Virus record (IMG/VR): IMGVR_UViG_3300025649_000002 | Span: 1-64,000 of that record | Origin: a virus | Taxonomy: Duplodnaviria > Heunggongvirae > Uroviricota > Caudoviricetes | Direction: 5' to 3' (one strand) | Length of the DNA: 64,000 nucleotides | Shown: in pieces, positions 1,402 to 39,776 of the stretch | Numbering within the stretch: position 1 is the first letter of the stretch | How the letters are laid out: each line of letters starts with the position of its first letter | Notes under the pieces: model-generated | What the model was told of the DNA's origin: nothing | Seen by the model: only the letters and a program-made list of their open reading frames with translations | The model's database searches: none | Translations under genes and position numbers: made by a program

Positions 1402-1454
1402 ACAAAAATAATTGAATATAACATTATATCACTATAGAAATTAAAGGAGATAAC

Positions 1455-2069
1455 ATGTCAGAAAAGTCAATATTGGAAAAATACAATGATAAGATGAACG
1501 AGTTGAAGAATGAAGAAAAAAATACTGATAATACTACAAGAGATAAAATATTTCAAATTAGTATTGCATTAACTGAATTAACAAATTGGATACAAACAAA
1601 AGATGTAGATGTTCCTGTAGAAGTATCATATTGGAAAAGCATGAACAATAACGTTATTAAAAATGAAGTTGAAGCAATAAAATCTGTTATTGATCCTCCT
1701 GCATCGTTTACTGAATTCACTACAAAAAGAGAAGATATTGCTAAAATTCATTGTCAGCAAAAAGATGGAATGCCTGATTTAATAATGGCACCTAATGGAG
1801 CACAACAATATCAATTTTCAGAAGAAGGCGGACTTGAATTCAAAACTGCTGTTGAGAAATTGGAAATTGAATATAAAGAAACTCTTGAAGAAATGCAACA
1901 GAGAGAACCATTGCTTATTGAGTTTTTAGAAAAAGATGTTCCAAGACCTAAATATTGTAAACTCAACTTAAATGATGTTGGTAAAAATATTTCATTAGAT
2001 CCTTGGTTTGATTTATTTTATAATGAAGGTCTTTTGAATGATAATGAATTAAAGGGAGATATTAATTAA
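1455..2069 (+). CDS. hypothetical protein
   Basis: ORF with AAGGAG RBS; 204 aa. Confidence 0.5.
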   Translation: MSEKSILEKYNDKMNELKNEEKNTDNTTRDKIFQISIALTELTNWIQTKDVDVPVEVSYWKSMNNNVIKNEVEAIKSVIDPPASFTEFTTKREDIAKIHCQQKDGMPDLIMAPNGAQQYQFSEEGGLEFKTAVEKLEIEYKETLEEMQQREPLLIEFLEKDVPRPKYCKLNLNDVGKNISLDPWFDLFYNEGLLNDNELKGDIN

Positions 2070-18778: not shown

Positions 18779-19459
18779 GTGGATATTGTTCTTCTCATCC
18801 CCGGACATATTAAAACTCAGCATCATATAAGGATGGCAAAAGAAAAAAGTAAATTTGTCGAAATTCTTAAAAAATCTTCTCCTGATTGGTTGAATATTGA
18901 AGTTATATATTCATGTGATTTATTAAATTCAGATGTGAAAAAAACATTCTCTGAAGATTTTACATTCAGAAATTTAAATTTCAATCATTATATAGATTTA
19001 GAAAATATAGAAACAAAAGGAATTGTTAGACCAACAAAATGCGGAATAAAATATACATATTGTAAATATGGACCTAAAAGTTTTTTCGCACGTACTGGTC
19101 AGGATTGTACTCTTGAACCAACTAAATTCATTAAAATGTTATCAGAATTTAAAACTAAAGTTGATGAATTATTTATGCTGGGTGGAAGTGATACAGATAA
19201 AAATTTTAAATTGTGTTTTGATGATGAACAGCAGAAGAAAAAAGTTCCTGTCAGATGGAGATTTTGTCAAGGAAATTTTATGTTTGCACCTACTTGGGTA
19301 TGGAATAAATATTATGTAAATAATCTACCACCACGTACTATTCACTACGCAGATGATTCTGTAGTTTCATGGTTGATACATGATGATGGCGGTGAACTAA
19401 TTCACTATAAAAATAAATTTTGGAAACATCACCAAGAAAAGAATTTTCCTCATGGATAA
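18779..19459 (+). CDS. hypothetical protein
   Basis: ORF track (GTG start; true start uncertain). Confidence 0.4.
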   Translation: MDIVLLIPGHIKTQHHIRMAKEKSKFVEILKKSSPDWLNIEVIYSCDLLNSDVKKTFSEDFTFRNLNFNHYIDLENIETKGIVRPTKCGIKYTYCKYGPKSFFARTGQDCTLEPTKFIKMLSEFKTKVDELFMLGGSDTDKNFKLCFDDEQQKKKVPVRWRFCQGNFMFAPTWVWNKYYVNNLPPRTIHYADDSVVSWLIHDDGGELIHYKNKFWKHHQEKNFPHG

Positions 19460-20612
19460 AAAACTCATAAAACAAAAAATGGATGAACTTGAAGAAAACG
19501 AATTTATGAAAGATGAATGGATTCAATTTTCAACCATCATGAATGAATTTATTTCCGATTCAATATCACTTCGAGCCGCTAGATTTTTATATTCAATATG
19601 TCAAATAAGTAAACCAACATCCATTCTTGACGTTGGTAGTGGATTCTCTTCTTATGTATTCAGAAAATTCAAACAAACTAATGATGTAGAAGTGTATTCA
19701 TTGGCAAATAATGAAGAGCAAAGAATCAAATCAACCCGTTTTAGTGAAAGTTGTAATATTTCATTTGAAAATTTTATTAAATGGAAGGATGTTTATAATT
19801 TAAAGAAACCATTTGATATCGTATTTTTAGATATGGGTGATGCTGAAAAACGGGAAGGAGTTTTAAAAGTTTTAATTAAAAATAATATAAATGAAAATAC
19901 AATATTCATTTTAAATGATATGCATATTAAAGAATTGGGTGAGTTTACAAACAGAAATTTTAATGATAATACTAAACATACAAGGTTTGGAGTCAAAGAA
20001 CTTACGGTAGATGAGTATGGACGATTCTTAGGATTATATACTGCACCAAAAACTCCTCTGTTATCTATAATGACAAGAGTTCATCCAAAACGAAAAAATA
20101 TGTTTGATATTTGTAAAGAATCCTTGATGCATCAAACATCAGATAATTTTGAGCAGGTATTAGTAGTTGATGAATCTGAAAATGGTCAAGGACGTGCTTA
20201 TGCAAATAAAGCGTTTAATATAAACAAAGGGAAATATACCATCAATGGACAATATGTAATGATTCTTGATGATGATGATAAACTAATCAATAATACTCTT
20301 ATTGAAGATTTAGAAAAAATTATTGATGCCGAGAAAAGTGATATGGTCATATGGCGAGGTCATGTCGATGGTTTAGGAAATTTACCACCAGATAATTTAT
20401 GGATGAAAGAACCATTATGTGGAAAGATTGCATCATTTTGTTTTGCAATTAAAAAACAATTATGGGATGAACATATATCCGAGTTTGAAAAAGATATAAG
20501 AGTTGGAGATTATATATTTATAAAATCTATATTCAAAAATAGTCGAAAGGTATCATGGTTGGATAATGTATATGCTGATACTCAACGTGTAAGTCAAGGG
20601 AGTGCTGAATAA
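19452..20612 (+). CDS. bifunctional class-I O-methyltransferase / family-2 glycosyltransferase
   Basis: N-terminal ILDVGSGFS and FDIVFLDMGDAEK (OMT-like); C-terminal GT-A with VLVVDESENG and DxD ILDDDD. Confidence 0.6.
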   Translation: MDKKLIKQKMDELEENEFMKDEWIQFSTIMNEFISDSISLRAARFLYSICQISKPTSILDVGSGFSSYVFRKFKQTNDVEVYSLANNEEQRIKSTRFSESCNISFENFIKWKDVYNLKKPFDIVFLDMGDAEKREGVLKVLIKNNINENTIFILNDMHIKELGEFTNRNFNDNTKHTRFGVKELTVDEYGRFLGLYTAPKTPLLSIMTRVHPKRKNMFDICKESLMHQTSDNFEQVLVVDESENGQGRAYANKAFNINKGKYTINGQYVMILDDDDKLINNTLIEDLEKIIDAEKSDMVIWRGHVDGLGNLPPDNLWMKEPLCGKIASFCFAIKKQLWDEHISEFEKDIRVGDYIFIKSIFKNSRKVSWLDNVYADTQRVSQGSAE

Positions 20613-21397
20613 TGAATATTCCAATGTTTTGGTGGAGAGACGCTAATATTACAACAAATTTTGGAGATGTATTATCTCCTTATATTGTCGAACAATTATC
20701 TGGAAGAACTCCTCAGTATACACAATTACCTGGCAAACTACTAGCGTGTGGTTCTGTCATGGATATGGTAAAAGAAGGAGATGTTATATGGGGAACAGGA
20801 ATATCAAAACCAAATGAAACATATAGATGTAACATGACCATTCATGCTGTAAGAGGTCCACGTACAAGAAAGAATTTATTAATGACTGGACTTGATTGCC
20901 CTTCTGTATATGGCGACCCAGCAATTCTTCTTCCACATTTGTTCAATGTTAAAACAACCAAAAAATATAAATATGGAATCATTCCTCATTATGTTGATTA
21001 TGAACAGGTCAAAAAAACAACAAAGGAAACTGATATTCATATTATCGATATAATGTCAGGAATTGAAAATGTTATTTTAGAAGCACATCAATGTGAATAT
21101 TTATTTTCAAGTTCTCTTCATGGTGTGATATTAGGAGATGTATTTAAGATTCCTACAAGATGGGTTATAATAAGCGATAAGGTTTCGAGTAAGACATTTA
21201 AATTTCTTGACTATTACGAATCAACTAATCGTGATCTATTTTTCATTGATTGGCGAAAGAGATTTGTAATTGACAATGTATTTAATAATTGGTCTCCGCC
21301 CGATATAGATTGTAATAAACTTTTATCTGTATTTCCATATTTGAAATCGGAAATAAAAACTATTGATGATATAATTCCAAAGGAGATTAAGGAATGA
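20612..21397 (+). CDS. polysaccharide pyruvyl-transferase-like protein
   Basis: N-terminal NFGDVLSPYIVEQLSGR motif typical of PS_pyruv_trans; weak. Confidence 0.4.
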   Translation: MNIPMFWWRDANITTNFGDVLSPYIVEQLSGRTPQYTQLPGKLLACGSVMDMVKEGDVIWGTGISKPNETYRCNMTIHAVRGPRTRKNLLMTGLDCPSVYGDPAILLPHLFNVKTTKKYKYGIIPHYVDYEQVKKTTKETDIHIIDIMSGIENVILEAHQCEYLFSSSLHGVILGDVFKIPTRWVIISDKVSSKTFKFLDYYESTNRDLFFIDWRKRFVIDNVFNNWSPPDIDCNKLLSVFPYLKSEIKTIDDIIPKEIKE

Positions 21398-22677
21398 AAG
21401 TAGGACTTATATATTTACCCCATCCTTATTTAGGACAACCAGATGCTCAGGCTCCTTTAGGATTGATGTATCTTGCAACTGCATTAGAAGAGAAAAATAT
21501 TGAATGTGATATATTTAATTTTTCATCTTCTCATACTCATGAGGCATTGAATAAATTAACAAAGTGTGACATATACGGAATCACTGTAACGAGTTTTGAG
21601 TTACCTCAGGCGAATCGTTTTGCTCATTTGATAAAGGAATTGTATCCGGAGTCAAAAGTTATCCTAGGAGGACCGGGCACCTATTCATCTGAATTTGTTG
21701 ACAATGATGTTATTGATTCAATATGTTTGGGTGATGGAGAAATTACAATTATTAATATGATACAAGATGTAAAAACAAAATCTCTTGCTCCTATATATTA
21801 TGGTTTAGCTCCTGCAAATCTTGATACGATTGGATTTCCTGCACGTCACAAATTACATTCAAGTCAAGGTGGAAATATTTTTGCATATAATAAGAATTAC
21901 AAAGGAACTGGAAGTACAATATTGATTACAAGTCGAGGTTGCCCATTCAAATGTGCTTTCTGTGGTTCTCCACATTTTACAAAAATGAATAAAGGTGTAC
22001 GGTATCGTTCAGCAGAAAATATTCGAGATGAGATTATACAAGTTCAAAAAGATTATAACATTCATCAGTTTCGTATTTCAGATGATATGTTTATGTCAAA
22101 TAAAGAACGAGTCTATGAGATATGTGAATTGTTAGGACCATTGGATGTTGTATGGAGAATATCAACCCGAGTGAAACCATTAGATGAAGATTTACTTAAA
22201 TTTATGTATGAAGCAGGATGTAAAGAAGTTTCATTTGGAATTGAAAGTTTTGATAATCATGTATTGAAAGTATTGAAAAAAGGAACCACTGCTGAAGATA
22301 ATGCAAGGGCAGTTGAAATTGCAAAGAAGGTCGGCATGGATGTTCGAATGTTGTTTATGATTAAAACTCCTGGACAACGAAAAGAAACTGTACCATTGAA
22401 CATCGAATGGCTCGAAAGAGTTCCTTATGACATTATTGCTTGTACAACATTCATTCCTATTCCCGGTTGTGATATATGGCATAATCCTAAAGATTATGGA
22501 GTTGAAATTACAGATAGAAATTTAGATCATTACAATTTTTATTTCTTTGGAAAACTGGGAGAGAATAAAGTAAAAAATATTATTAGTTTTATTGATAGAG
22601 ATAATGATGAAGTTAATGCAGAGACTCAAGAGTTTCGTGAATATTTGAAAACTGTTGGAAAGGTGAATAGAGGATGA
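21394..22677 (+). CDS. B12-binding-domain radical SAM enzyme (class B)
   Basis: N-terminal Rossmann-like B12-binding region; canonical CPFKCAFCGS (CxxxCxxC) cluster. Confidence 0.6.
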   Translation: MKVGLIYLPHPYLGQPDAQAPLGLMYLATALEEKNIECDIFNFSSSHTHEALNKLTKCDIYGITVTSFELPQANRFAHLIKELYPESKVILGGPGTYSSEFVDNDVIDSICLGDGEITIINMIQDVKTKSLAPIYYGLAPANLDTIGFPARHKLHSSQGGNIFAYNKNYKGTGSTILITSRGCPFKCAFCGSPHFTKMNKGVRYRSAENIRDEIIQVQKDYNIHQFRISDDMFMSNKERVYEICELLGPLDVVWRISTRVKPLDEDLLKFMYEAGCKEVSFGIESFDNHVLKVLKKGTTAEDNARAVEIAKKVGMDVRMLFMIKTPGQRKETVPLNIEWLERVPYDIIACTTFIPIPGCDIWHNPKDYGVEITDRNLDHYNFYFFGKLGENKVKNIISFIDRDNDEVNAETQEFREYLKTVGKVNRG

Positions 22678-22931
22678 ACACATTAGACAATAATGTTAAA
22701 GTTGATGGTATTGAACATTTCTGTAAATTGATGAGTCTAGGATATCCGTCAGATAAATTCACTGAGGTAACAAAGAAAGAGTTTATTGAATATGTAAGTC
22801 ATATCAATTATAGCAGAAGTAATTGGTGTGATTGTAGAGAGTATATTCAGGTGGGAACAAGAAAGACACTTGCATATTATTTTTATAGACAACAGCGTTT
22901 CTTTATATATGAAAAGGAACATAAAATATAA
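22674..22931 (+). CDS. hypothetical protein
   Basis: ORF track, coupled. Confidence 0.35.
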   Translation: MNTLDNNVKVDGIEHFCKLMSLGYPSDKFTEVTKKEFIEYVSHINYSRSNWCDCREYIQVGTRKTLAYYFYRQQRFFIYEKEHKI

Positions 22932-23473
22932 TGCATATTATAACTCAACATGTTCATGAAATTGTATCGCAGATTATCAATGGATACAAATCTGAATCTA
23001 TAATTGATATGGGTGGTACAGGAAAAATGCATGAGTTTACATTGGGTCATGTTACAAATGCCAATATAAAAAATGGTATCGATGCAACTAATCTACCATT
23101 TGAAGATAATTCATTTGATGTTGCATGTTCAGTTGCAGTTCTTGAACATGTAGATGAACAAGAGAAATTTATTAAGGAATCAATTCGTGTTGCTCGTAAG
23201 GGAGTCGTTCATTGGTTTCCCATAAAATCAGAGGCTTCTGATGCAGTTGAAAATTTTAAAAAGAAACATGGTCATAAACATTTATGTAAACTTCCAACAG
23301 AATATATGGTGGGTGCATTTCCACAATTACTAATTGAAGATTGTGTAACTTGTGAAACCCATCTCTTATTATTATGTAGTATATCTCCAAAATTAAACAA
23401 TAAAGAACTTTATAAACTTATAAGAGAATATGGTTCTGCCTCTTACGGTGCTTTATTGTATAGCGATTTATAG
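22931..23473 (+). CDS. class I SAM-dependent methyltransferase
   Basis: IDMGGTGKM and LPFEDNSFDVACSVAVLEHV (Methyltransf_11-like). Confidence 0.55.
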   Translation: MHIITQHVHEIVSQIINGYKSESIIDMGGTGKMHEFTLGHVTNANIKNGIDATNLPFEDNSFDVACSVAVLEHVDEQEKFIKESIRVARKGVVHWFPIKSEASDAVENFKKKHGHKHLCKLPTEYMVGAFPQLLIEDCVTCETHLLLLCSISPKLNNKELYKLIREYGSASYGALLYSDL

Positions 23474-23569
23474 GTTAATAAAGTCGGTTTATTTTAACCG
23501 TGGATGAATGTAAAGAAAACAACCAAAAGCGTCTTTAACGATATTAAAATATACGATTAGGAGTCTTAA

Positions 23570-24055
23570 ATGATAACTGCTAAATTAACTCGGGGAAATA
23601 GATGTTCAATTGCTAAAGATGCAATGATTGGATATAATGAACATGGTGGTGAGATTGTTTTGGGTAACAATGTACGGATTCGTGAGAGATGTATTCTCAG
23701 AACTTGTACAGGATTATTGAAAATTGGTAACGATGTAATTATAAATTATGATTGTATATTTCATGCAGAGGGTGGAATCGACATCGGTAATGATGTAGTA
23801 TTTAGTCCGAATGTTCAAATGTATGCTTCAAATCATTCAATTGCTCGTGATAAATTAATTCGAAAACAACCTAATAAATCTGAACCAATATTTATTGGTG
23901 ATGATGTATGGATAGGTGCTGGTGCAATTATTCTAGCAGGTGTAACTATTGAAGATGGTGCCGTGATTGGTGCCGGTTCTGTTGTAACCCATAATTATAT
24001 TCCTGGATATGAAATATGGGCAGGCAATCCTGCAAAGAAAATAGGAGAACGATAA
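23570..24055 (+). CDS. hexapeptide-repeat (LbH) acetyltransferase
   Basis: IGDDVWIGAGAIILAGVTIEDGAVIGAGSVV repeats. Confidence 0.65.
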   Translation: MITAKLTRGNRCSIAKDAMIGYNEHGGEIVLGNNVRIRERCILRTCTGLLKIGNDVIINYDCIFHAEGGIDIGNDVVFSPNVQMYASNHSIARDKLIRKQPNKSEPIFIGDDVWIGAGAIILAGVTIEDGAVIGAGSVVTHNYIPGYEIWAGNPAKKIGER

Positions 24056-24067
24056 TAGGGGACTATT

Positions 24068-24250
24068 GTGGATGAATATAAATGGAAATCTATGAATAAA
24101 ATATGTCCATGGAATTATAATGGAAACCCTCCATATATCAGATGTCCAATATATTCTAATACTAAATTATCTATGAAAAATAAACCTCCAAGAGAATCTA
24201 TATGTATAAATAAAGATTGTGTGTTTTATGACTTTATAGGAGAAGACTAA
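24068..24250 (+). CDS. small Cys-rich protein
   Basis: ORF track. Confidence 0.25.
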   Translation: MDEYKWKSMNKICPWNYNGNPPYIRCPIYSNTKLSMKNKPPRESICINKDCVFYDFIGED

Positions 24251-24786
24251 TGCATGGAGATATTGTAGATTTAGAATTACACATTAAAAATTATCTTGAA
24301 ACTTTACAATCTGTGATGGTTCATGAACAATTACAATATGAAATTAAAGATAATATTAATAGAATAATTGATGGTTTTGTTGCTCAAAATAGATTAGAAA
24401 GAAATGAATTTGATATTCAAATATCATTCGATAAAAAAAATCAACACTTAAATTTACAAATAAATGAAAAACCAGTCGAATCAAGTCAATATCCTATTGT
24501 AAAAATTGAGAATCCTGATTATATTACATCGCTTAAACAATCAATATTAGAAGAGTATCCACAATTTACTCCTGGAGAAATTAAACATATTGGTAACATA
24601 ATATCTAATGCTTTTCGATATGTTAATGATTCATGTATAGATAATTGGAGATGTTCTGATGATTCAATTGTTGAAAATTTTAAATATAATGATGCTAAAA
24701 ATAATGGATGTTGTGGATTTTATGATAAAACAATAGAATTGAACTCAGGTAGAAAATTTAAATTTGGATTTAATTATGGTCATTAA
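24250..24786 (+). CDS. hypothetical protein
   Basis: ORF track. Confidence 0.4.
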   Translation: MHGDIVDLELHIKNYLETLQSVMVHEQLQYEIKDNINRIIDGFVAQNRLERNEFDIQISFDKKNQHLNLQINEKPVESSQYPIVKIENPDYITSLKQSILEEYPQFTPGEIKHIGNIISNAFRYVNDSCIDNWRCSDDSIVENFKYNDAKNNGCCGFYDKTIELNSGRKFKFGFNYGH

Positions 24787-24988
24787 AATAATGTTTTGGT
24801 GGGCAGTATTGGGGTTTATTCCATATCAATTAATTGTGTTGAGAAAAATGAAACGTGACCATAAACTTGTGTTATCTGATATTATAAAATCAATACCATT
24901 TGGGTTAGTTGCATTTTTGGCAGTTCTTATCACTAAATTATTTATTAGTAAGGAGAAGCAAAGTGGTAAAGAAAATCATAGCATATAA
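24764..24988 (+). CDS. small membrane protein
   Basis: Two hydrophobic helices. Confidence 0.25.
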   Translation: MDLIMVIKIMFWWAVLGFIPYQLIVLRKMKRDHKLVLSDIIKSIPFGLVAFLAVLITKLFISKEKQSGKENHSI

Positions 24989-25300
24989 ACTTGTTAGAAA
25001 GATGACTGATGGTAAATTAGCATCATTGTTTATAAATATGAGAGCCAGACTTCCACTTAACAAATGGTTAATTGCCGAAGAACATCCTACCAAAGGGTTT
25101 GCATATAGACCTGGTTGGCATTGTACATTGAAACCTATTGCTCCACATTTATCAAAAAAAGATAGAGTATGGGTAAAGGTTGAAATTAAAGGATTGGAAT
25201 ATTATGATAGACCAGAATCTCAAGGTGGTACTTGGATATTGGCGAAACAAATGAAAATATTAAATATGTTACATTGAAATTTCATGGAAGGATTAAAATT

Positions 25301-26227
25301 ATGAAGATACTTTATTTCTCTGACAAATATGCTTGGGATGTAATGGGAACCAAACGATCAATTTTTGAAGAGGTTAAACGTCAAGGAAATGAAATTGTTT
25401 TTTATGATAAGAAACACATTCATATTATCCTTCAGATTATATCACAAATGAAACCGGATCAAATATGGTTTTCACATTCGGCATTAACAATTCCTGAAGC
25501 ATTGAAAAAGAAAATTAAAATTCCTATCATTGGTTTTGGATTTAGTGACCCATATTATTTCCATGAATCACGATTTAAGAGTTATGATGTATATGTTACA
25601 AATCATTATGAGACACTTGAAAAATATAAAGATGTTTTACCAATGCATTATAATCCTACTGCATGTGATTTTAATTTCCATGGTAGAAAAGATTTAGATG
25701 TTAAGGATAAAGATATTGATATTTCAGTTATCGGAGTTGGAATACATCCACGATTCATTCATGACCAAGAACGATTAGTAATTGTTGATATGTTGAGACG
25801 TAACAAACCAGTAAAGTTTAATATTAATTGTTATGGAAAAAAATGGAATAAACATCCTCAGAATTTTAATTTTATTGGGGGTGAGAAATTTTTGGATGTT
25901 ATTAGACGTAGTCATATTGGTTTGGATATTCAAGATGATTGGAGTCCATTAGCACATCGTATGTTTGAATATATTTCATGTGGTACTCCTGTAATAACAC
26001 GACAAAGATCTGAAGTTGAACGTGTTTTTATTCCTGGCAAAGAAATAATAACTTATAAACATTATGGTGATTTATGTGAAAAACTTGAATATTATATGAC
26101 AGATGGTTATGATGAACTTCGTAAAATTGCAGAGGCAGGATATCAAAGATGTATTGCAGAACATGATATTATACATAGAGTTAGTTCCCTCTTATCGTTT
26201 ACTGAAAGTGTGAAAGATGTCAAATAA
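25301..26227 (+). CDS. glycosyltransferase (GT1/GT4-like, CgeB-like)
   Basis: FEYISCGTPVIT motif in C-terminal domain; ATG 25301 preferred over 25232. Confidence 0.5.
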   Translation: MKILYFSDKYAWDVMGTKRSIFEEVKRQGNEIVFYDKKHIHIILQIISQMKPDQIWFSHSALTIPEALKKKIKIPIIGFGFSDPYYFHESRFKSYDVYVTNHYETLEKYKDVLPMHYNPTACDFNFHGRKDLDVKDKDIDISVIGVGIHPRFIHDQERLVIVDMLRRNKPVKFNINCYGKKWNKHPQNFNFIGGEKFLDVIRRSHIGLDIQDDWSPLAHRMFEYISCGTPVITRQRSEVERVFIPGKEIITYKHYGDLCEKLEYYMTDGYDELRKIAEAGYQRCIAEHDIIHRVSSLLSFTESVKDVK

Positions 26228-26269
26228 CATAATCAGAACATATATTAAATAATACATTGGGGGGAATGT

Positions 26270-26446
26270 ATGAAGAGTCCATGTATTGGTTGTTCTAAAT
26301 GGGCAACAAAAAGATTTCCAGAGTGTAGAGTTAAATGTGAAAAAATCGATGATTTTCTTACAGAAGCAAAACAAGGACTTCAACCCGCATTAGGAGAATA
26401 TGTACATATACCATATGGTATAACAAGTTTACCAAAAATTAGTTAA
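26270..26446 (+). CDS. small Cys-rich protein (58 aa), not in ORF track
   Basis: CIGCS...C..C; GGGGGAA RBS. Confidence 0.25.
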   Translation: MKSPCIGCSKWATKRFPECRVKCEKIDDFLTEAKQGLQPALGEYVHIPYGITSLPKIS

Positions 26447-26541
26447 GTCTTAAAGGATGTACGATAATCTTCCATAAACGTGTGGATAAAATTCGACATC
26501 TAAAATTCCCATAATGTTTTATTAATATTAAGGAGGCCATC

Positions 26542-27432
26542 ATGGCGGTAGCAACAGTAAAGATTTTAGGTTTACCAACAGTAACAACAGTAGCAGGAAA
26601 TGTAAAATGTGCAAAGATTGAATTAACATCTCAGAATACGGCCAATAGAGTAAGAATTCAATTAACACCGTTGACAGATGCATTCAATCTTGAAATGGGA
26701 AACAATTTTAATAAAAATCTTGTTCCTCATTTATTCCCGAATATTCATTATACAATGTTACATCCGGCAGGAGATACATGTAGAACATGTGCAGGGAAAT
26801 TGGAGAGTTGTACTCCATCATGTTGGGAGAATGATTGCCCGTATACTATAAAGTATTGTAATAATTATCCATATATTTTATCAAAATATCTTCCAGGAAA
26901 TCCTTGGTCGTTTGTTATGTTAAGAGGACAAATTGAATGGCACTTTGATAATAAAATTTTCGATTGTTTTTGTAGATTTGGTACTCGAGTTAATATGATA
27001 TTTCATCATCTCACATCTGATCCTACTAATGATTCATATATGGGTCATAGATTTGTTGAAAACGGAACTCATAAAAGTATTCATAGTATATCAAATCATA
27101 CTGAGAATAAATTCAATCGTATTTCAGAACAATATAGACTTGCTAAATTACAAAAGAAATCGGGGTGTGTTACACAAGGCACTATTGTGTCATTGAAGCA
27201 GGCACGTAATATCGCCCGAATTGCTATGCATAAAGCAACTGATGGAATTAGAAATGTAGAAGAAGCTCCAGATATGGCATTTGTTATGGCAAATTATAGA
27301 CATGCATTTAAACAAGGTCAATTGTATCTTCCTATTCCAATAGGAAATCATACAGCAGCATCCGCTTCGAGTTTTAAAAATAGGCGTAAAGCGAGAACAA
27401 AAGAAGAAATGATAGCAGCAGGCCTTTTATAA
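26542..27432 (+). CDS. hypothetical Cys-rich protein
   Basis: AAGGAGG RBS; CRTCAGKLESCTPSCWENDCPY cluster. Confidence 0.45.
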   Translation: MAVATVKILGLPTVTTVAGNVKCAKIELTSQNTANRVRIQLTPLTDAFNLEMGNNFNKNLVPHLFPNIHYTMLHPAGDTCRTCAGKLESCTPSCWENDCPYTIKYCNNYPYILSKYLPGNPWSFVMLRGQIEWHFDNKIFDCFCRFGTRVNMIFHHLTSDPTNDSYMGHRFVENGTHKSIHSISNHTENKFNRISEQYRLAKLQKKSGCVTQGTIVSLKQARNIARIAMHKATDGIRNVEEAPDMAFVMANYRHAFKQGQLYLPIPIGNHTAASASSFKNRRKARTKEEMIAAGLL

Positions 27433-29902: not shown

Positions 29903-30754
29903 ATGAAACTAATAGAATCGCTTGGTCCTCATAAATTATTTTATTCATCACCCGGAAATACTGAAGGGTTGACTGATGTAAAACAAACTCTAATTCAACA
30001 CGATGGTACAGTTCTTCTCGATAGTATTCCTATGACAGAATTGGGAGATGGAGTGTATGAATATACTTATAATTTTACTTCTATTGGATGGTATGTGTCT
30101 CACGGGATTAGTGACTCCTTGGGTGGGTCAGATTTGGAGTCGTTACGGGTTGGTGATCCTAGTAACGATTACGTTTATGCGGGTGGCCCAAATGACACCA
30201 CAGTTTCTTACGAAGTTAATACCTTGGATGACACTAATGTAATGACAGGTTGGATGAATGAAATTGGCACCACAAAAATATTCTGGGTCGATGTTACATC
30301 CTTACCTGATGATAAATATTTTTTCAAAATGAATGGAAGAGATACTGCTCGTTTTAATTATCCATTTATACTTCCAACAATTACACCAAAAGGAGTTAAA
30401 TTAGTCCTTGAAAAAGGATATAATTTGTCTGCCTTCTCGGGGACAGGGAAATACAATTTCGATTCAACGGCCGGTGTTTGGGTCAGTCTTTCTAATGATA
30501 TTGAGAATGCGAAAGCATCTGATTTATATGAATATATTAAATATCACTATCCTGCGGTTATTGTACACTATATTAAATCATACTATGAACATCCTACAAA
30601 ACGATTTAAGATTTATGTGCCTGAAATTACACCGAATGATAATGAAAATAATTTTCCTCTGGTTCAAGTCAATCAAGAATCACATCCAGAGAAGAATGCA
30701 TTCTATACTATGTTGACAATGGTGGGAGATGAGATTACAATTGATTGTCGTTAG
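29903..30754 (+). CDS. hypothetical protein
   Basis: ORF track. Confidence 0.45.
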   Translation: MKLIESLGPHKLFYSSPGNTEGLTDVKQTLIQHDGTVLLDSIPMTELGDGVYEYTYNFTSIGWYVSHGISDSLGGSDLESLRVGDPSNDYVYAGGPNDTTVSYEVNTLDDTNVMTGWMNEIGTTKIFWVDVTSLPDDKYFFKMNGRDTARFNYPFILPTITPKGVKLVLEKGYNLSAFSGTGKYNFDSTAGVWVSLSNDIENAKASDLYEYIKYHYPAVIVHYIKSYYEHPTKRFKIYVPEITPNDNENNFPLVQVNQESHPEKNAFYTMLTMVGDEITIDCR

Positions 30755-30761
30755 AAAAAAA

Positions 30762-30798
30762 TAGAGGGGATACGAACTTTCTGCAATTGTCCCCTCTA
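30762..30798 (+). terminator. intrinsic terminator-like hairpin
   Basis: 9-bp stem TAGAGGGGA/TCCCCTCTA. Confidence 0.45.
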
Positions 30799-30947
30799 AG
30801 CAATTGTTGGAATTTTACAAGAGAAGAAGAATTAAATTTCAAAAATGTAGTCGACCATTCTCCTTCTCTTACGCCTGATTATTCACAAGTTTGTCTAGTG
30901 TTAATAATAACAGACGTGTAATGAAAAAAACAGGTCGACTACGAAAT

Positions 30948-31454
30948 TTATTTACATTTTTGATTCCATCTATTTTTTTGAAGCGGTTTTTTAATTTTAA
31001 ATATTTTTGCTATTTTTGATAATGAATGATATTCAACTGGTGTATATTTTGATGCTTCTTTTAATATTAAATTTCGAGTTTCTCGAAGATGACGAATCCA
31101 TGTGCAGATTGATTTAAACTCAGTGGAATTAGTTTTATTGTATTCAGACAATTTTTCTAACCATGCCTCATATTGTTCAGGGTGTGAGGAAAAGTACACT
31201 ATATCATCAGCATGAATCTTTTCGTAATCAGGAGGATTTATTTTACCCATAACTTCAATTTTTGCATTATCAATCAACACTTTAAATTCTGGGTTTGTAC
31301 TATAAATCAAACAATCTTCTAATTGCTTTCCATAACGTATAAGAGGATGTGTGCAATTAGGACAATCAAAATCGAGCTGGTCATAAATTTCAATGTTTTC
31401 TGAACAACCACAACATTTACATATAAAAATTCGTGTAGTTTTGAATATTTTCAT
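30948..31454 (-). CDS. N-terminal zinc-ribbon hypothetical protein
   Basis: CKCCGCS...CPNC; GGAGGG RBS. Confidence 0.45.
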   Translation of the reverse strand: MKIFKTTRIFICKCCGCSENIEIYDQLDFDCPNCTHPLIRYGKQLEDCLIYSTNPEFKVLIDNAKIEVMGKINPPDYEKIHADDIVYFSSHPEQYEAWLEKLSEYNKTNSTEFKSICTWIRHLRETRNLILKEASKYTPVEYHSLSKIAKIFKIKKPLQKNRWNQKCK

Positions 31455-31474
31455 TTACCCTCCTTTTAAAAAAT

Positions 31475-31511
31475 AACATGGGTGGTTCCCCCCATCACCA
31501 CCACCCATGTT
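31475..31511 (-). terminator. hairpin between SPFH gene and downstream gene
   Basis: 11-bp stem AACATGGGTGG/CCACCCATGTT. Confidence 0.45.
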
Positions 31512-31526
31512 ATATAAACTTAAAAA

Positions 31527-32438
31527 TTACTTTCTTGAACCACGAAGGGACTGTCGATTCATTGTTGTCTGTAATGTATCTGCATTAATAGCATTGTAAG
31601 GCAGAACAATTAATTCATTGTTAGGACCTGCTGCCATCTTTTCAAGAACTTCCCACTGCCGCATTGCGAGAATTTCTGCAGTAATAGATTTTGCAAGGAT
31701 TTGATTTCCAGCGGCTTCGGCCTTCTTAGATTCAATAAGGGCTTTACCTTGGGCTCTTGCAATATCTTCCTGACGAATTGCTTGGGCAATTGTTGCTTTT
31801 GCTTCAGCAGCTTTTTTCTGATCATCCAACTGTGCTTTCTTGATTGCCTGACGTTGTGCAGTGATTACAGGATCATAATCAAGATTTGATACGAGAACAT
31901 CTGTTGTTTGAATCGGATATCCTAATGCTTTATATCGTTCAATAACAAGTTTTCTGATATCTGCTTCAATTACTTTACGATCATCCGCAATTGTATCTGT
32001 AGTATATGGACTTACAACATTTCTTGTATTGGAACGCAAAATGTCTTTCATGGCAGTTTTATAGAATCCGCCAAGATCTAACATGAAGCCGTCTATATCA
32101 CCATTCTTTACTGCTTTAGAAGGAACCTTGGCCTTAATCATTTCAATATCTTGTTTTGTAGTCTTGAATGATCCGACCCATTTAACATCAACTTTCATGT
32201 TGACTTTGTCTTTACAAAGGATCTGCAGTGACTCTGTGAATGATTTCAATTTTGAATCTACAAAATAAACCCGGTCTTTTCCCCATGCAGTATAAACGCC
32301 TTTGGTATGTATTTCATTGGCACCAGATGTTTTGGCAACAATAACAACTGTTCCCGGAGGTACTACATTACGAGAACATGCAGATGTAAGAAATAATAAT
32401 GCTACAATTGTGATTAATAATGATATTTTTCTGTTCAT
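31527..32438 (-). CDS. SPFH/band-7 (HflC/prohibitin-like) lipoprotein
   Basis: Lipobox LLFLTSAC; SPFH body; Ala/Gln/Lys-rich coiled-coil C-terminus. Confidence 0.6.
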   Translation of the reverse strand: MNRKISLLITIVALLFLTSACSRNVVPPGTVVIVAKTSGANEIHTKGVYTAWGKDRVYFVDSKLKSFTESLQILCKDKVNMKVDVKWVGSFKTTKQDIEMIKAKVPSKAVKNGDIDGFMLDLGGFYKTAMKDILRSNTRNVVSPYTTDTIADDRKVIEADIRKLVIERYKALGYPIQTTDVLVSNLDYDPVITAQRQAIKKAQLDDQKKAAEAKATIAQAIRQEDIARAQGKALIESKKAEAAGNQILAKSITAEILAMRQWEVLEKMAAGPNNELIVLPYNAINADTLQTTMNRQSLRGSRK

Positions 32439-32440
32439 AA

Positions 32441-32923
32441 TTATTCAACCCCTTCAAGTGAATTTTTAAGAAATGCTTCGTAATCGTCTTTACTCTCATC
32501 TTGTTCAATCTTAACTTCTTCTGCCCGTTTTATTTCGGGTGCTTTCAAAGCCTCTTTGTTTCTTTTTACAATCGCTTCAGGTTTTTGAAAAACTTGTGTC
32601 CTCACCTGATCTTCAACTGTGGTAGGCATTTCAGTTGGTGTACTATTCCATGATCCTATGTTCAGGAATAAATAAAGACATATACCAACTATCCATACAC
32701 CTACATTAATAATCTTTCCCATCTGCCATAATTTATCGATTTCTTTTCGATTCTTTTTGGTGACCTTCTCCATCTTTGTCAATTTACCGATTACACTCTT
32801 AGCCACTATAAAAATAATAATGTTAAGAATTATACCGGCTGGTACTACAATCATTGCATCAAAAAAATTACTCACATCTTTTCTCCCCTTTCTCAAATGG
32901 TTTATAAAATAAATACAAAACAA
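32441..32923 (-). CDS. two-TM membrane protein, putative SPFH partner
   Basis: Translationally coupled immediately upstream of SPFH gene. Confidence 0.45.
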   Translation of the reverse strand: MFCIYFINHLRKGRKDVSNFFDAMIVVPAGIILNIIIFIVAKSVIGKLTKMEKVTKKNRKEIDKLWQMGKIINVGVWIVGICLYLFLNIGSWNSTPTEMPTTVEDQVRTQVFQKPEAIVKRNKEALKAPEIKRAEEVKIEQDESKDDYEAFLKNSLEGVE

Positions 32924-32976
32924 AATCTAATAAAACTTCATTCAAGAATTAATATATATAACCACCAATGGTTATA

Positions 32977-32993
32977 TAGAACAAATATAAAAC
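32977..32993 (+). promoter_or_regulatory. TAGAACAAATATAAAAC promoter-like motif
   Basis: Upstream of 33011. Confidence 0.45.
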
Positions 32994-33010
32994 AACTTAC
33001 GGAGACTATT

Positions 33011-33655
33011 ATGAAAAAATATTTATTTGTTATATTGTTATTAATCGTTGTTTTGGCAGGAACTTCCATTGCGACCAATCAAAATTTTTCAATTCAATCA
33101 TCAAATATTTATCTTGATAATGATGGAACAGGTGGTGATGGTTTATTAGAAAACCCATATGGTCCGCTCTCAGAAATTAATTGGACAACTATTACTAATT
33201 ATATTAATAAAGGTCTCGCTGTTAATATTTATTTAAAGCGTGATGCTGAGTGGACTGAAGAATTCAATGTTAGTGCGGTTGGTCCAGCAGGCAAACCAAT
33301 AACAATGAAATCGTATGGAATTGGTACAGAATCAGTAATTAATGCATCAATGGTTGTCATAGTTAATCCTTCCGTACAATCAAGTGAACAAACTTTAGAA
33401 ACTAAAAACTTTTATCTTGATAATATTGGAACAAGTGGAGATGGATTAACAGCAGATACACCTTCTTCTGATATACCATGGACAGAAATTGCTGAATTAG
33501 TTAATATTGGTCATCCTGTTAATATTAATATAAATTGTGGAACTGTGTGGGATGAATTAAAAATCGGTGTGATTGGTGATAAACCAATAACAATAAAATC
33601 ATATGGAACCGGTGAAGAACCAATAATTAACGGAATGTCGTTTGAATTAATTTAA
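33011..33655 (+). CDS. secreted protein with internal ~100-aa duplication
   Basis: Signal peptide MKKYLFVILLLIVVLAGTSIA; repeats YLDNDGTGGDGL.../YLDNIGTSGDGL...; ATG 33011 with GGAG RBS. Confidence 0.5.
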   Translation: MKKYLFVILLLIVVLAGTSIATNQNFSIQSSNIYLDNDGTGGDGLLENPYGPLSEINWTTITNYINKGLAVNIYLKRDAEWTEEFNVSAVGPAGKPITMKSYGIGTESVINASMVVIVNPSVQSSEQTLETKNFYLDNIGTSGDGLTADTPSSDIPWTEIAELVNIGHPVNININCGTVWDELKIGVIGDKPITIKSYGTGEEPIINGMSFELI

Positions 33656-35643: not shown

Positions 35644-36321
35644 ATGGCAAGTAGAAATTTAAAATATTTATATGAACCTTTTCAAAAAATAATAGAAAAG
35701 GCATTAAAAATTGCAGATGAACAAAACTTGCCAATAACGATCACATGTACAAAACGATCACAGATGGAGCAAGAAGCACTTTACGCACAAGGTAGGGAAG
35801 AACTTATAGTTGTAAATGCAAAACGTAAAAAAGTAAAATTGGGCGACATTACTCTCAAACAAAATCAGAGAAAAGTCACTTGGACTTTGAATACATATCA
35901 CTCAACAGAACCCAAATCGATGGCCATAGATTATGCAATTGGTAAATCGACAACAGTAACTTGGGATACAAAAGCAGATCTAAATAACAATAAAATCACT
36001 GATTATAAAGAATTTGGAGAAATTTGTAAAAGTGTCGACCCGGATAATATTCAATGGGGCGGTGATTGGAAAAAAAAGGATTGGTGTCATGTTCAGTGGA
36101 AAAATGGTCGAGAAATAGATCAAACTATCATTGAAGATGTTATACCACCGAAACCGGTAGTAACTTCTCCGGAACCTCGTAAAGAGAAAACTGAGGAGAA
36201 ACCACCGTTAAGTCCTCCGGTAGAAACTGGAGGCATAACCACCGTTGCCCCAACCCCATATAGTCGGGTTGTCAATAATATACTACGGTTATTTTTTAGT
36301 TTATTCAAACCAAAAAAATAA
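35644..36321 (+). CDS. endolysin, M15-family zinc peptidase with Pro-rich C-terminal extension
   Basis: Motifs QMEQEALYAQGR, YHSTEPKSMAIDYAIG, WGGDWKKKDWCHVQW match M15 H..D..H zinc ligands (T5 endolysin-like). Confidence 0.6.
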   Translation: MASRNLKYLYEPFQKIIEKALKIADEQNLPITITCTKRSQMEQEALYAQGREELIVVNAKRKKVKLGDITLKQNQRKVTWTLNTYHSTEPKSMAIDYAIGKSTTVTWDTKADLNNNKITDYKEFGEICKSVDPDNIQWGGDWKKKDWCHVQWKNGREIDQTIIEDVIPPKPVVTSPEPRKEKTEEKPPLSPPVETGGITTVAPTPYSRVVNNILRLFFSLFKPKK

Positions 36322-36419: not shown

Positions 36420-36593
36420 TTATTCTACACAGTCAAGAAGTTGGAAAATATAATAAAAGGTTGTGCATGAAAATAGTAATGCAAAACCCCATCCAATACT
36501 AGCATCCCAACTTTTCAATTTAAGATACCCGCATGTCTTTCCTGCAAAATAACTTCCTGCTATTATGAAAGATAAGAATATTAATAATTTCAT
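36420..36593 (-). CDS. small membrane protein (57 aa), not in ORF track
   Basis: MKLLIFLSFIIAGSYFAGKTCGYLKLKSWDASIGWGFALLFSCTTFYYIFQLLDCVE; two hydrophobic segments. Confidence 0.25.
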   Translation of the reverse strand: MKLLIFLSFIIAGSYFAGKTCGYLKLKSWDASIGWGFALLFSCTTFYYIFQLLDCVE

Positions 36594-36983: not shown

Positions 36984-38252
36984 TTAAATCACTTTCGCAA
37001 GTTCTTTAAGGACAGGATTTCCTTTTAAAACTTTACGGGTAAAATCAACAGATCCCTTTTCCTTCTCTTCATAAATTAAAAGTTTAAGACCAAGGGGAAC
37101 AATAGGTCTAGCAACATTCGTCATTTTCTCAATAACATGACGATAACCATCCAAAATATCTTTATCTTCTTTTGTGACCTTGAAATTCTTTGGTCGCATT
37201 TTCTTAATCAATTCATTGGTTACGGCAGTAATACATGAATATGCCTTAACCTTATTTTTCACGAAATCATTCCAATCGACTTTTGTTCGACCGAGAAGAA
37301 TACCTTCCGCATCCCACTGCATTAACAGTGTACGATATTCAATGAACTTGGTAGCGTAATCATCGCCAACATGTCCTTTAAGTATTTGAAATATTGAACC
37401 ATTCTCCAACCTGTTATTACCAGCGGAATGTTCATACTCATCAAGAGTATATGCTGCATTCGTCCATGATCTTGGAGACGCCCACGCACGAGATTCCATA
37501 GGTGTTGATTGAAGATAATTTGGATAATACTGAATGAATGAGATAATATCCTGACGCAAACCTTTCTTTATTGCAAAGTTCTTTGTCCATGCATCAGCAT
37601 TACTTTCAACATCCAAAAAGAATATTCTGTTCGCAACAGGTGCTAGGATTTGTTGAAACCCTGCTTTATCATCTGAACGATTACCTGCCATTATAATTGA
37701 TACATTATCAGGCAATTTATGATTATGAATTGACCGATATGTTAGAAGTTGAAATAAATATCCCTGAATAGTTTTGTTGCATAGATGTGCATCATCCAAC
37801 AGAAGAATCATTGGAGACTTATCAGGATCTTTAGGTTTGACACGAAGATTTTTAAATGAAAATAATTCAGGTAAAGACCATTTCGTGTACAATGAATCAC
37901 GTGGTGCTTTGACTTCGGGAATATCAATCGTTTTTCCAAATAATGAGATATTACCAAGTTTCTTCACCAATTCAGACAACCATGTCAATGCAGGACTGAA
38001 TCCTCCAACTTTTGGAAGACCTGTAATCTGCTCCAATAACATCGTTGCTACATATGCAACATTCAAACCCCATCCACGCTCAGTACAAATCTGTTCGAAT
38101 ACATCAGACTTGCCAATACCTGGAGGACCTGATATCCACAGGATTGAATGACCGAAATTCTTTTCTATCGCACGATCTCTCATCGCAACATGATTTTCAA
38201 TGAATCTCTTTGCATCATTAAGTTCAATTTTCAATTCCATATTTACTGCCAT
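36984..38252 (-). CDS. AAA+ ATPase, MoxR/CobS-like
   Basis: Walker A GPPGIGKS; Walker B MILLLDDAH. Confidence 0.6.
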   Translation of the reverse strand: MAVNMELKIELNDAKRFIENHVAMRDRAIEKNFGHSILWISGPPGIGKSDVFEQICTERGWGLNVAYVATMLLEQITGLPKVGGFSPALTWLSELVKKLGNISLFGKTIDIPEVKAPRDSLYTKWSLPELFSFKNLRVKPKDPDKSPMILLLDDAHLCNKTIQGYLFQLLTYRSIHNHKLPDNVSIIMAGNRSDDKAGFQQILAPVANRIFFLDVESNADAWTKNFAIKKGLRQDIISFIQYYPNYLQSTPMESRAWASPRSWTNAAYTLDEYEHSAGNNRLENGSIFQILKGHVGDDYATKFIEYRTLLMQWDAEGILLGRTKVDWNDFVKNKVKAYSCITAVTNELIKKMRPKNFKVTKEDKDILDGYRHVIEKMTNVARPIVPLGLKLLIYEEKEKGSVDFTRKVLKGNPVLKELAKVI

Positions 38253-38270
38253 TGGGGTATCTCCTTCACT

Positions 38271-39776
38271 TTATTTAATTCGGATTATCCGACCAGACAC
38301 ATTTTTATACTTGCCATGATTATGATTTACAATATAGATACGAGGAATATCTAACGGCATCAACTTCTGGGTTTCCTCAATATCCGATTCCATATCTGTT
38401 ACTGCTATGAAACATGATATCATTGCATCCGGATCTGAACGTATGATTTCATTCACTCTCTCAAATACATCTTTATGAGAGGTACCACCGAATGTGCGTC
38501 TTGTCAATACTGCTTCCACATCAAGTTCATCAGAAGTGTATTTCTTTTCCCAACTGATAGAATAGTCATGTTTTATAACTATAATATCTTTAAAATGATC
38601 CTTCGAATCATTAACAATTGATGCTGCTTTTCTCACATCATCATCAGACATTGAACCTGATTCATCAACGGAGAAAATCACTGTTCCGTATCGTTCTTCC
38701 TCATCAATAGATGGGAGATATGGAAGTGAAGGATTTGCCATCCATGAGGTTCTAGGTTTGCCCCATGTTAAATCTGACGATTTTTCCATTGCTGTCAAAA
38801 TCGAATCTGCCAATATTTTACCCCAATCAATTTGAACTTTAAATAATCTTTGTAGGAAACTCTTCAATTCTGCAGAGCCAACACCTTTTCGTAATGAAGA
38901 TTCAAGGAGTTGTCGTGACATAGAGACTCGTTGTTGTCGTTTTTCGTCGGCCTCTTTTTTCACTGCTTCTGATTCATATTCAATATCTGGAAAATTTACA
39001 TCTGTGTGGTTGAATTTCTTTCCGCCACCCATATCCAATTCAACTTCAGTAATTTCTACTTGAGGTTCTTCTTCTCCATCACCACCTGTACCACCATCTT
39101 CATCAGGTTCTTCTTCACCTGGTTTTTCTTTACCACTCCCTTTACCACTCTTTTTACCATCTTTATCTGGTTTTCCTGTTCCACTACCTTCTCCATCTCC
39201 AGGTTGTGGATCACCTTCTCCATCGCCTTCGCCTTCCATTCCTTTCATGAATTCAGACAATGCAACAGAATACTTTTTCTTGGTAACCATTTTCTTTTTG
39301 AAAAGTTTGTCATAGACTTCCTCTTCAATCATATTCTCAAACTGTTCATCATACAAAAAGTCATTCTTATACCTTTTGTCTGTCACTATATTTTTGAGAA
39401 TACTATTTTCTCCTGCCTCAACTGCAAGACAAAAGACTAAAGCATTGATTACCAAATCGCCAGCAAAATTCCAAATGGTCTTATCACGATGACCTACTCT
39501 CGCAGTGTGTTTTAACAGGACATGCATGTCTTCATGAATCAACACGAATGCCATTATTTCATCAGGAGTAAATTGTGTGTACATTGGTGATGTTGGATTA
39601 ATGAAAATCTTTTCACCTTCTTCCCATATCGCTGCAGGATGCGGGAGAGATGTTGTGAATATAATATCATATGATAACAATTCAGGCATAAACGGTAAAA
39701 AGATATCCTCACGCAATAATTTTGAAATGACCATATCGACAGTCAGTTTCGTTTGTTCGATCAGAGATTCATCCAT
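38271..39776 (-). CDS. HExxH metallopeptidase-like N-domain plus VWA domain protein (DUF2201/CobT-like architecture)
   Basis: IHEDMHVLLKH (HExxH); acidic Gly/Glu/Asp linker; MIDAS DESGSM (DxSxS). Confidence 0.55.
   Translation of the reverse strand: MDESLIEQTKLTVDMVISKLLREDIFLPFMPELLSYDIIFTTSLPHPAAIWEEGEKIFINPTSPMYTQFTPDEIMAFVLIHEDMHVLLKHTARVGHRDKTIWNFAGDLVINALVFCLAVEAGENSILKNIVTDKRYKNDFLYDEQFENMIEEEVYDKLFKKKMVTKKKYSVALSEFMKGMEGEGDGEGDPQPGDGEGSGTGKPDKDGKKSGKGSGKEKPGEEEPDEDGGTGGDGEEEPQVEITEVELDMGGGKKFNHTDVNFPDIEYESEAVKKEADEKRQQRVSMSRQLLESSLRKGVGSAELKSFLQRLFKVQIDWGKILADSILTAMEKSSDLTWGKPRTSWMANPSLPYLPSIDEEERYGTVIFSVDESGSMSDDDVRKAASIVNDSKDHFKDIIVIKHDYSISWEKKYTSDELDVEAVLTRRTFGGTSHKDVFERVNEIIRSDPDAMISCFIAVTDMESDIEETQKLMPLDIPRIYIVNHNHGKYKNVSGRIIRIK

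Follow-up and report, generated by a model that had tools for sequence, protein, structure and literature searches.

The window analysed here, a stretch of 64,000 nucleotides (nt) forming positions 1 to 64,000 of the IMG/VR virus record IMGVR_UViG_3300025649_000002, is part of a large, tailed, myovirus-like, uncultured phage and carries on its minus strand a two-gene operon for a lipoprotein of the SPFH (Band 7) superfamily and a small membrane protein, its partner, followed by a gene for a zinc-ribbon protein. The phage setting assumed in an earlier note on this DNA, made from its letters alone, is borne out by genes for a tail sheath (44962–46671), a baseplate wedge protein, a large terminase (61964–63715, minus strand) and an endolysin (35644–36321). 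The guanine-plus-cytosine (GC) content of the window is ~33%, no nucleotide similarity to cultured phages was found, and a metagenomic contig of 112,782 bp encodes a protein identical to the SPFH protein of the window. Between ~14 and 36 kb the genes lie mostly on the plus strand, and this run is broken by three consecutive minus-strand open reading frames (ORFs) at 30948–31454 (168 amino acids, aa; zinc-ribbon protein), 31527–32438 (303 aa; SPFH protein) and 32441–32923 (the maximal ORF of the partner). These three genes had been described as an opposite-strand island, and both their number and their coordinates agree with the ORF list and with the GC skew, the sign of which flips over exactly this stretch. 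The flanking plus-strand genes end at 30754 and start at 33011, respectively, and the GC content of the island (0.31–0.38) is similar to that of its surroundings.

The SPFH assignment of the 303-aa protein (31527–32438, minus strand) was checked with the Band_7 profile search that the earlier note had proposed, and Pfam Band_7 (PF01145) matched residues 25–215 with 48.6 bits against a cutoff of 23.6 (E 1.3e-12). The profile of phrog_200, a family labelled 'lipoprotein', matched residues 4–294 (E 3.3e-26). The protein consists of a signal peptide with a lipobox at Cys21, the SPFH domain, a helix at residues 190–251, a second helix at residues 254–270 and a C-terminal segment. The AlphaFold2 model, built from 35 homologues with a mean predicted local distance difference test score (pLDDT) of 84, resolves a β-rich N-terminal part, an α/β part, a 62-residue coiled-coil helix (190–251), which corresponds to the coiled-coil tail described earlier, and the second helix (254–270); a conserved 'NELIVLPYNAI' segment lies at the C-terminus. 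Foldseek aligned this model over nearly its full length with HflK/C (7vhq_E, 6e-12; 9cz2), prohibitin, stomatin, erlin, QmcA-YbbJ (8z5g), flotillin and the major vault protein at 12–18% identity, the matches to HflK/C, prohibitin, stomatin, erlin and QmcA falling between E 6e-12 and 1e-8. The SPFH domain, long coiled-coil helix and C-terminal segment of cage-forming members are therefore all present according to the model and its structural matches. Sequence profiles placed the protein less closely; a profile search of PDB sequences reached prohibitins alone, and weakly, and no SPFH-family model of NCBIfam, including HflK and HflC, matched at E ≤ 0.1. The window protein has every element of a cage former, yet it fits none of the named subfamilies.

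The lipobox LLFLTSAC, already read correctly in the earlier note, contains the motif LTSA-C21 and conforms to the signal-peptide pattern of bacterial lipoproteins. A Cys residue stands 2–7 residues ahead of an invariant VVPPG in 93 of 96 full-length homologues (45–100% identity), and the remaining three (P0057, P0059 and P0062), together with the locus L022, have an uncleaved hydrophobic N-terminal transmembrane (TM) anchor instead of a lipobox. The SPFH protein of the window is predicted to be a lipid-anchored lipoprotein, and either a lipobox or a TM anchor would set the SPFH domain outside the cytoplasm. HflK/C share this orientation, whereas QmcA and the flotillins have the opposite one.

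The partner gene (32441–32875, minus strand) lies directly upstream of the SPFH gene and encodes a 144-aa protein with two TM segments. Its most likely start is the GTG at 32875, because a Shine-Dalgarno sequence (AAGGGGAG) lies 7 nt before this codon and because the gene calls on identical contigs and the database entry P0098 likewise give 144 aa, in keeping with the orthologues; the TTG at 32923 is a start for the maximal ORF only. The TAA stop codon of the partner gene (32441–32443) is 2 nt from the ATG of the SPFH gene (32438), the AAGGGG Shine-Dalgarno sequence of which sits within the 3' end of the partner gene, and by this arrangement the two genes are translationally coupled. The partner has two hydrophobic helices connected by a loop with 10 Lys/Arg against 3 Asp/Glu residues, followed by an acidic tail of ~73 residues (11 Lys/Arg against 16 Asp/Glu). 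A topology with the N-terminus out, the Lys/Arg-rich loop in and the acidic tail outside the cytoplasm is predicted, and the positive-inside rule would put the tail and the SPFH domain on one and the same side of the membrane. Two motifs of the tail are conserved, P-[ST]-x-x-E-I-x-x-x-N and a C-terminal helix with [DEN][DEN][YF]xx[FLM]. Among 20 members of the partner family, which are mostly ~15–35% identical, the N-terminal tail contains 0–1 Lys/Arg residues, most loops carry a net positive charge and the C-terminal tails are acidic or neutral; in one member a single TM segment is combined with the same tail. A word-indexed homology search with the partner returned only 4–8 proteins from close relatives, so the family was collected through genomic context. 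Pfam, PHROGs, PADLOC and NCBIfam gave nothing significant for the partner of the window, and no paper found by literature search describes the two-TM protein.

The earlier note had set this protein in the partner position, often occupied by NfeD-like proteins in SPFH operons, and had proposed a test for an NfeD fold. The position holds, as a two-TM protein is encoded 2 nt from the SPFH gene in the same operon, which is the setting of NfeD-type proteins. The likeness to NfeD itself was rejected; the NfeD family of Pfam did not match the partner at E ≤ 1, a profile search of PDB sequences with 14 partners reached no NfeD chain at E ≤ 10 (the QmcA-YbbJ structure 8z5g being among the PDB entries available to the fold search), and the AlphaFold2 model of the partner, a low-confidence one with a pLDDT of 57 from 9 sequences, contains helices only and no strands. 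In addition, the Glu/Lys-rich composition of the tail argues against an OB-fold β-barrel. The partner holds the operon position of NfeD and shows no sequence match to it.

The SPFH gene is immediately preceded by a small TM gene of the same architecture in every examined locus in which upstream DNA is present (L001–L004, L006–L010 and L029–L031; five IMG/VR contigs; seven GTDB contigs; and the phages Miami, PA1C and RVTF4), the metagenomic phage contigs in this comparison being 45–189 kb long. The partners in these loci vary from 110 to 163 aa, and their spacing to the SPFH gene ranges from an 8-nt overlap to a 64-nt gap. In Klebsiella phage Miami and Pseudomonas phages PA1C and RVTF4, the upstream partner belongs to phrog_32239, a family with no assigned function. 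Similarly, in Salmonella phage PhiSH19 (L032, JN126049; Vi01-like), an unannotated 68-aa two-TM ORF (1433–1637, minus strand) ends at the start codon of the SPFH gene and looks like a missed gene in Vi01-like genomes. The neighbouring PhiSH19 gene annotated as a 'superinfection exclusion protein' was considered as an equivalent of the partner and rejected, since its product is soluble, has no TM segment and is unrelated to the partner. The SPFH family profile found only five IMG/VR loci, all of them distant. The neighbourhoods of the pair differ among large phages and always consist of early or auxiliary genes; on this wide scale the pair is an accessory of large phages. Some of the contigs that carry the SPFH pair also encode a PspA/IM30 homologue adjoining a ligand-gated ion-channel-like protein (L010, 136–1887), a Tad3 family protein (L031, 11376–11903) or a homologue of ribosomal protein L7/L12 (L029, 11038–11415).

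The pair is also found in bacteria, where homologues were sought in one genome per species. Lentisphaerae bacterium WC36 has it in a complete chromosome, flanked by asd, dnaG and ThiF-family genes; on a Victivallaceae contig it stands with obg, rluD-like and rseP-like genes, in L023 with dnaB and cysS, and in L022 (Desulfobulbaceae) with HDOD and WD40-caspase genes. These neighbours, many of them housekeeping genes, point to a cellular membrane-scaffold module that phages also carry, and the module is cellular as well as viral. In a rough neighbour-joining tree, the window falls into a clade composed mostly of phage contigs, and copies from bacteria of the PVC group form a second clade in which they are mixed with IMG/VR contigs, which suggests several transfers and a long residence in phages.

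The best explanation of these observations, which we hold to be slightly better than an even bet, is that the two-gene operon (32875→31527) encodes a membrane-scaffold complex that faces away from the cytoplasm and has a role in the host envelope. The SPFH protein would be exported and anchored by lipid at Cys21 and, by its likeness to other full-length SPFH proteins and from its complete architecture, would probably use its long coiled-coil helices and C-terminal strand to build a ring or dome at the periplasmic surface of the membrane. The two-TM partner, coupled to it in amount, would give the complex its membrane-spanning element and would probably dock on the SPFH ring through the two conserved motifs of its periplasmic acidic tail, thereby taking the operon slot that NfeD proteins hold beside cytoplasm-facing SPFH proteins. 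The module would be a cellular one, which many large phages have long kept as an accessory pair of genes, and its most likely role in the phage would be to organise or stabilise the host envelope during infection. The zinc-ribbon gene would be an unrelated, lineage-specific neighbour, expressed solely by read-through of a conserved terminator.

Several points weigh against this scaffold model. The all-helical model of the partner is of low confidence, and co-occurrence and coupling are indirect support for a contact between partner and SPFH protein. Asp at position +2 was seen in none of the SPFH homologues. By the E. coli sorting rule, a lipoprotein lacking Asp at +2 is sent to the outer membrane, although this rule is not universal; an outer-membrane placement would make a tall cage collide with the peptidoglycan. 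In the chromosome of WC36, the SPFH copy (L028, 5986–6901) has a frameshift after 'KLKSYSKN', so this copy is either a pseudogene, which would speak of decay, or a product of mis-sequencing. Furthermore, the role of SPFH proteins in phages has been termed unclear or poorly understood (PMC7760394; PMC13239085), and the benefit that the phage might draw from the pair is pure inference.

A more far-reaching version of the scaffold model is possible, but appreciably less probable. In it, the partner and the periplasm-facing SPFH lipoprotein would constitute an undescribed class of SPFH cage that is independent of NfeD, with the tail motifs of the partner plugged into the ring, and many large phages, including cultured jumbo phages and Vi01-like phages in which the partner is unnamed or unannotated, would keep it for a specific step of infection, for example the protection of the inner membrane or the exclusion of rival phages.

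Three other explanations, in which the pair serves phage exclusion, mimicry of the FtsH regulators or lysis, each have some resemblance to the data, and each loses on a membership test or on context. Superinfection exclusion, or a moron-type defence, in which the envelope pair blocks the DNA entry or the adsorption of competing phages, is unlikely, though it fares best among them. It would be in keeping with the patchy spread of the pair over unrelated large phages, in early or accessory regions, and with its organisation as an opposite-strand unit of its own bounded by terminators, and phage-encoded envelope lipoproteins are a classic route of exclusion. Nevertheless, none of 5027 PADLOC defence models matched the SPFH protein or the partner, the homologues in bacteria lie in housekeeping, non-prophage chromosomal settings, and the PhiSH19 neighbour with the exclusion annotation is the soluble, unrelated protein mentioned above. 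The comparison of relatives points the same way. Relatives were searched via the SPFH protein and via the flanking 283-aa gene, which gave a small sample of close relatives only, and in every one of them (L001–L005, L019 and L020) the island lies in the same place and orientation; identity to the window is 87% for the SPFH protein and 89–90% for the flanking protein, so that the island has diverged to the same degree as its flanks. No close relatives were found in IMG/VR when it was searched with the SPFH protein or with the 283-aa or PKD-domain flank. Neither presence/absence polymorphism nor atypical composition, by which a moron would be recognised, was seen in the close relatives sampled. 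The earlier note, which proposed a moron, had itself named conservation of the island in all relatives as the outcome that would count against this idea, and presence throughout with flank-like divergence accordingly weakens it. The truly variable gene at the locus is that of a 214-aa secreted protein (33011–33655, plus strand), which is present in the window and in identical contigs and absent from L003 and L004. The protein has a signal peptide and an internal tandem duplication of ~80 aa, 'YLDNxGTxGDGL...PITxKSYGxG'.

The second alternative is that the phage SPFH protein mimics HflK/C, its ring trapping or modulating the host FtsH from the periplasm and thereby altering the turnover of membrane or regulatory proteins. 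The best structural matches are to chains of HflK/C (7vhq_E, 6e-12; 9cz2), the predicted periplasmic orientation is shared with HflK/C, and several homologues are labelled 'HflC' by JGI. However, that label is generic, being the name of the COG, the matches to prohibitin, stomatin, erlin and QmcA are about equally good at 14–18% identity, and no NCBIfam model of HflK or HflC reached E ≤ 0.1. In addition, a single SPFH gene is present instead of a K/C pair, a lipid anchor takes the place of a TM helix, the SPFH protein has a dedicated partner of its own, and the cellular copies form an independent module. The HflC-like identity given in the earlier note was consequently not sustained, and the FtsH/CII idea attached to it rests only on superfamily resemblance; we consider such mimicry improbable.

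A functional island of three genes, in which the zinc-ribbon protein regulates the SPFH pair or works with it, is about as improbable. The zinc-ribbon gene (30948–31454, minus strand) encodes a 168-aa protein with an N-terminal four-Cys zinc ribbon (CxxC...CPxC) and a helical, basic C-terminal part. The CxxC zinc ribbon noted earlier is genuine, as the two knuckles C12-x2-C15 and C31-P-x-C34 are kept in orthologues of 44–70% identity. The protein has no family match in Pfam or PHROGs, its zinc-finger hits in NCBIfam are weak (E 0.015–0.04), and a marginal match to PDC-S19 (E 0.007) was the only one in PADLOC. The three genes are contiguous on the same strand and are all kept in all close relatives, and the zinc-ribbon gene, lacking space for its own promoter, probably relies on read-through from the pair. 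On the other hand, homologues of the zinc-ribbon protein are confined to the immediate lineage, an exhaustive HMMER scan of 1.84 billion representative proteins finding it in two clusters only (itself and one that is 44% identical), and the place downstream of the SPFH gene is taken by other genes in all of the more distant loci. Judged by this distribution, the zinc-ribbon gene is a lineage-specific orphan neighbour outside the conserved pair. The earlier treatment of the three genes as one unit therefore does not hold; only the partner and SPFH genes are widely conserved, and the zinc-ribbon gene stands behind a terminator.

This terminator or attenuator (31467–31513, minus strand) occupies the intergenic region between the SPFH and zinc-ribbon genes and has a perfect stem of 14 bp (31473–31486 / 31500–31513), behind which the minus strand continues with UUAUUUUUU and, immediately after it, the Shine-Dalgarno sequence of the zinc-ribbon gene. 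The hairpin (31473–31513) folds with −21.9 kcal/mol (z −4.35, reached by 0 of 200 shuffles). A hairpin with a T-run was found at this junction in all relatives, three of them distinct, with differing upper-stem sequences, and in the record of phage Miami an annotated terminator lies at the same position right after the SPFH gene. With its Shine-Dalgarno sequence directly behind the hairpin and no space for a promoter, the zinc-ribbon gene probably depends on read-through. The hairpins had been put forward as the bounds of the island, which applies to one of the two. The terminal hairpin (30755–30798, minus strand; inverted repeat 30762–30798, z −2.94) has a 9-bp stem and a conserved 19-nt loop, abuts the stop codon of the convergent 283-aa gene and is conserved in relatives; as a U7 run follows it on the minus strand, it probably ends the transcripts of the island itself, whereas the hairpin at 31473–31513 is internal. 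At the position equivalent to ~30762 in L003 and L020, an extra canonical bidirectional terminator, AAAAAAATGCCCACTATGGATGGGCATTTTTT, is inserted beside the conserved 'GGATACGAACTTTCTGCAATTGTCCC' element, in which the loop is more conserved than the stem. The 3' untranslated region (UTR) of the zinc-ribbon gene (30817–30965, minus strand) is highly structured, judged by its inverted repeats and by folding against shuffles. It forms an extended hairpin of ~115 nt (−41.1 kcal/mol, z −5.31, 0 of 200 shuffles), which overlaps the stop codon and is partly conserved in relatives. The 10-bp inverted repeat reported earlier (30847–30856 / 30933–30942) is real and is part of this structure, although, by a rough estimate, several repeats of this length within 100 nt would be expected in 64 kb. 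The extended hairpin might serve RNA stability or processing, or might itself be a small RNA. Scans for Rfam families and tRNAs gave no match in or near the island.

A function in lysis, with the two-TM protein as holin or antiholin or the pair as a two-component spanin, is very improbable. In its favour, the RVTF4 partner bears the name 'Holin' in UniRef, the order of the genes, with a lipoprotein after an inner-membrane protein that has a charged tail, is like that of i- and o-spanins, and an M15 endolysin lies 2.7 kb away. Against it, the pair adjoins an endolysin in none of the loci examined (that of the window being at 35644–36321, next to another small two-TM ORF) and stands among housekeeping genes in bacterial chromosomes, the upstream gene in the Miami record is annotated as no more than hypothetical, and o-spanins are short, unlike a folded SPFH protein of 303 aa. 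The holin or spanin reading of the partner was rejected on this genomic context, and the partner did not qualify as a holin.

Among the other features around the operon, the divergent intergenic region 5' of the partner gene (32876–33010), which separates it from the 214-aa gene, holds a perfect palindrome, TATATAACCA-N4-TGGTTATATA, at 32955–32978. The palindrome may be an operator or part of a promoter. It was also considered as a repeated promoter motif, which was rejected for want of enrichment in the rest of the window. The region 32876–33010 showed no convincing sigma-70 promoter, the number of sigma-70-like sites in the scan being that expected by chance. Further along the window, the M15-type endolysin (35644–36321) ends in an amphipathic basic tail, and just downstream of it a 57-aa ORF with two hydrophobic segments (36420–36593, minus strand) is a candidate holin. 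Between the lysis and tail regions (36984–39776, minus strand), a MoxR-like AAA ATPase (phrog_1297) is encoded beside a DUF2201 protein with a metallopeptidase-like N-domain and a VWA-like domain. A cluster at 19452–27432 (plus strand) contains B12-binding radical SAM, methyltransferase, hexapeptide transferase and glycosyltransferase genes, according to Pfam labels from the identical contig L001, and these suggest the chemistry of sugar or cell-surface modification.

SPFH proteins are ancient membrane organisers, cage structures of which have been solved only recently, and for two decades they have been observed to recur in large phages, with no explanation offered. As early as 2006, phage SPFH/Band 7 proteins appeared in a listing for T4-like genomes (PMC1524935), and they have since been annotated in Vi01-like phages (PMC3220722; PMC10892097), in RaK2-like and Eneladusvirus jumbo phages (PMC7760394), in Erwinia phage RisingSun (PMC6034870) and in a phage of the Schitoviridae (PMC13239085). 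Members of the PHROG 200 type are on record with no tested function (PMC1524935; PMC7760394; PMC13239085), and in Pasteurella multocida an SPFH-family protein from a prophage island has been investigated as a virulence factor (PMC9872710). The BFVD database holds many viral SPFH models, including those of giant viruses. To this record the present comparison adds a concrete two-protein unit, an SPFH lipoprotein with a two-helix partner that is not NfeD, predicted to lie on the periplasmic side and found in phages and in bacterial chromosomes. Homologous pairs occur in the cultured phages Miami and PA1C, and the role of an SPFH scaffold in viruses can therefore be tested there.

The closest known system is the set of phage SPFH/Band 7 lipoproteins of PHROG 200, which likewise are SPFH proteins of ~260–300 aa with a lipobox, encoded by large lytic phages; examples are Miami gp157, the proteins of PA1C and RVTF4, gp131 of Erwinia phages Joad and RisingSun and those of Vi01-like Salmonella phages and of the T4-like phages 44RR, Aeh1 and RB43. 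The SPFH proteins of cultured jumbo phages are 21–28% identical to that of the window over ~90% of its length. Miami, PA1C and RVTF4 also share the upstream two-TM gene (phrog_32239), and Miami shares the downstream terminator. The window protein is nonetheless distant in sequence from the PHROG 200 members and belongs to an uncultured clade of 45–87% identity, and the tail of its partner (~73 aa) is longer than in the members of this set (~50 aa, or ~11 aa in PhiSH19). The cellular pairs of WC36 and of metagenome-assembled genomes of Victivallaceae, Kiritimatiellota and Desulfobulbaceae have the same two-gene layout, the lipobox-VVPPG start and the partner motifs at 45–53% identity; they differ in being chromosomal, beside housekeeping genes, and in a few of them a TM anchor replaces the lipobox. 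HflK/HflC of E. coli (7vhq, 7wi3 and 9cz2) share the SPFH domain, the CC1/CC2 helices, the C-terminal segment and the predicted periplasmic side with the window protein and are its best structural match, but they form a heteromer of two paralogues with N-terminal TM anchors, whereas the window encodes a single lipoprotein of ~18% identity that has no family-level sequence match to them. SPFH-NfeD operons (QmcA-YbbJ, 8z5g; YqiK-YqiJ; FloA/FloT-NfeD; Pyrococcus PH1511/PH1510) likewise encode a small membrane protein beside the SPFH protein, co-expressed with it and presumed to co-assemble with its cage. Their products face the cytoplasm and contain the NfeD OB-fold, in contrast to the window pair, which is predicted to face the periplasm and to combine a two-TM hairpin with an acidic helical tail in which no NfeD domain was detected. 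The pair of the window thus adds a new and divergent member to an already known class of phage accessory genes; its conserved non-NfeD partner is only a modestly new point, and its periplasmic orientation is a useful refinement of this class and not a new kind of system.

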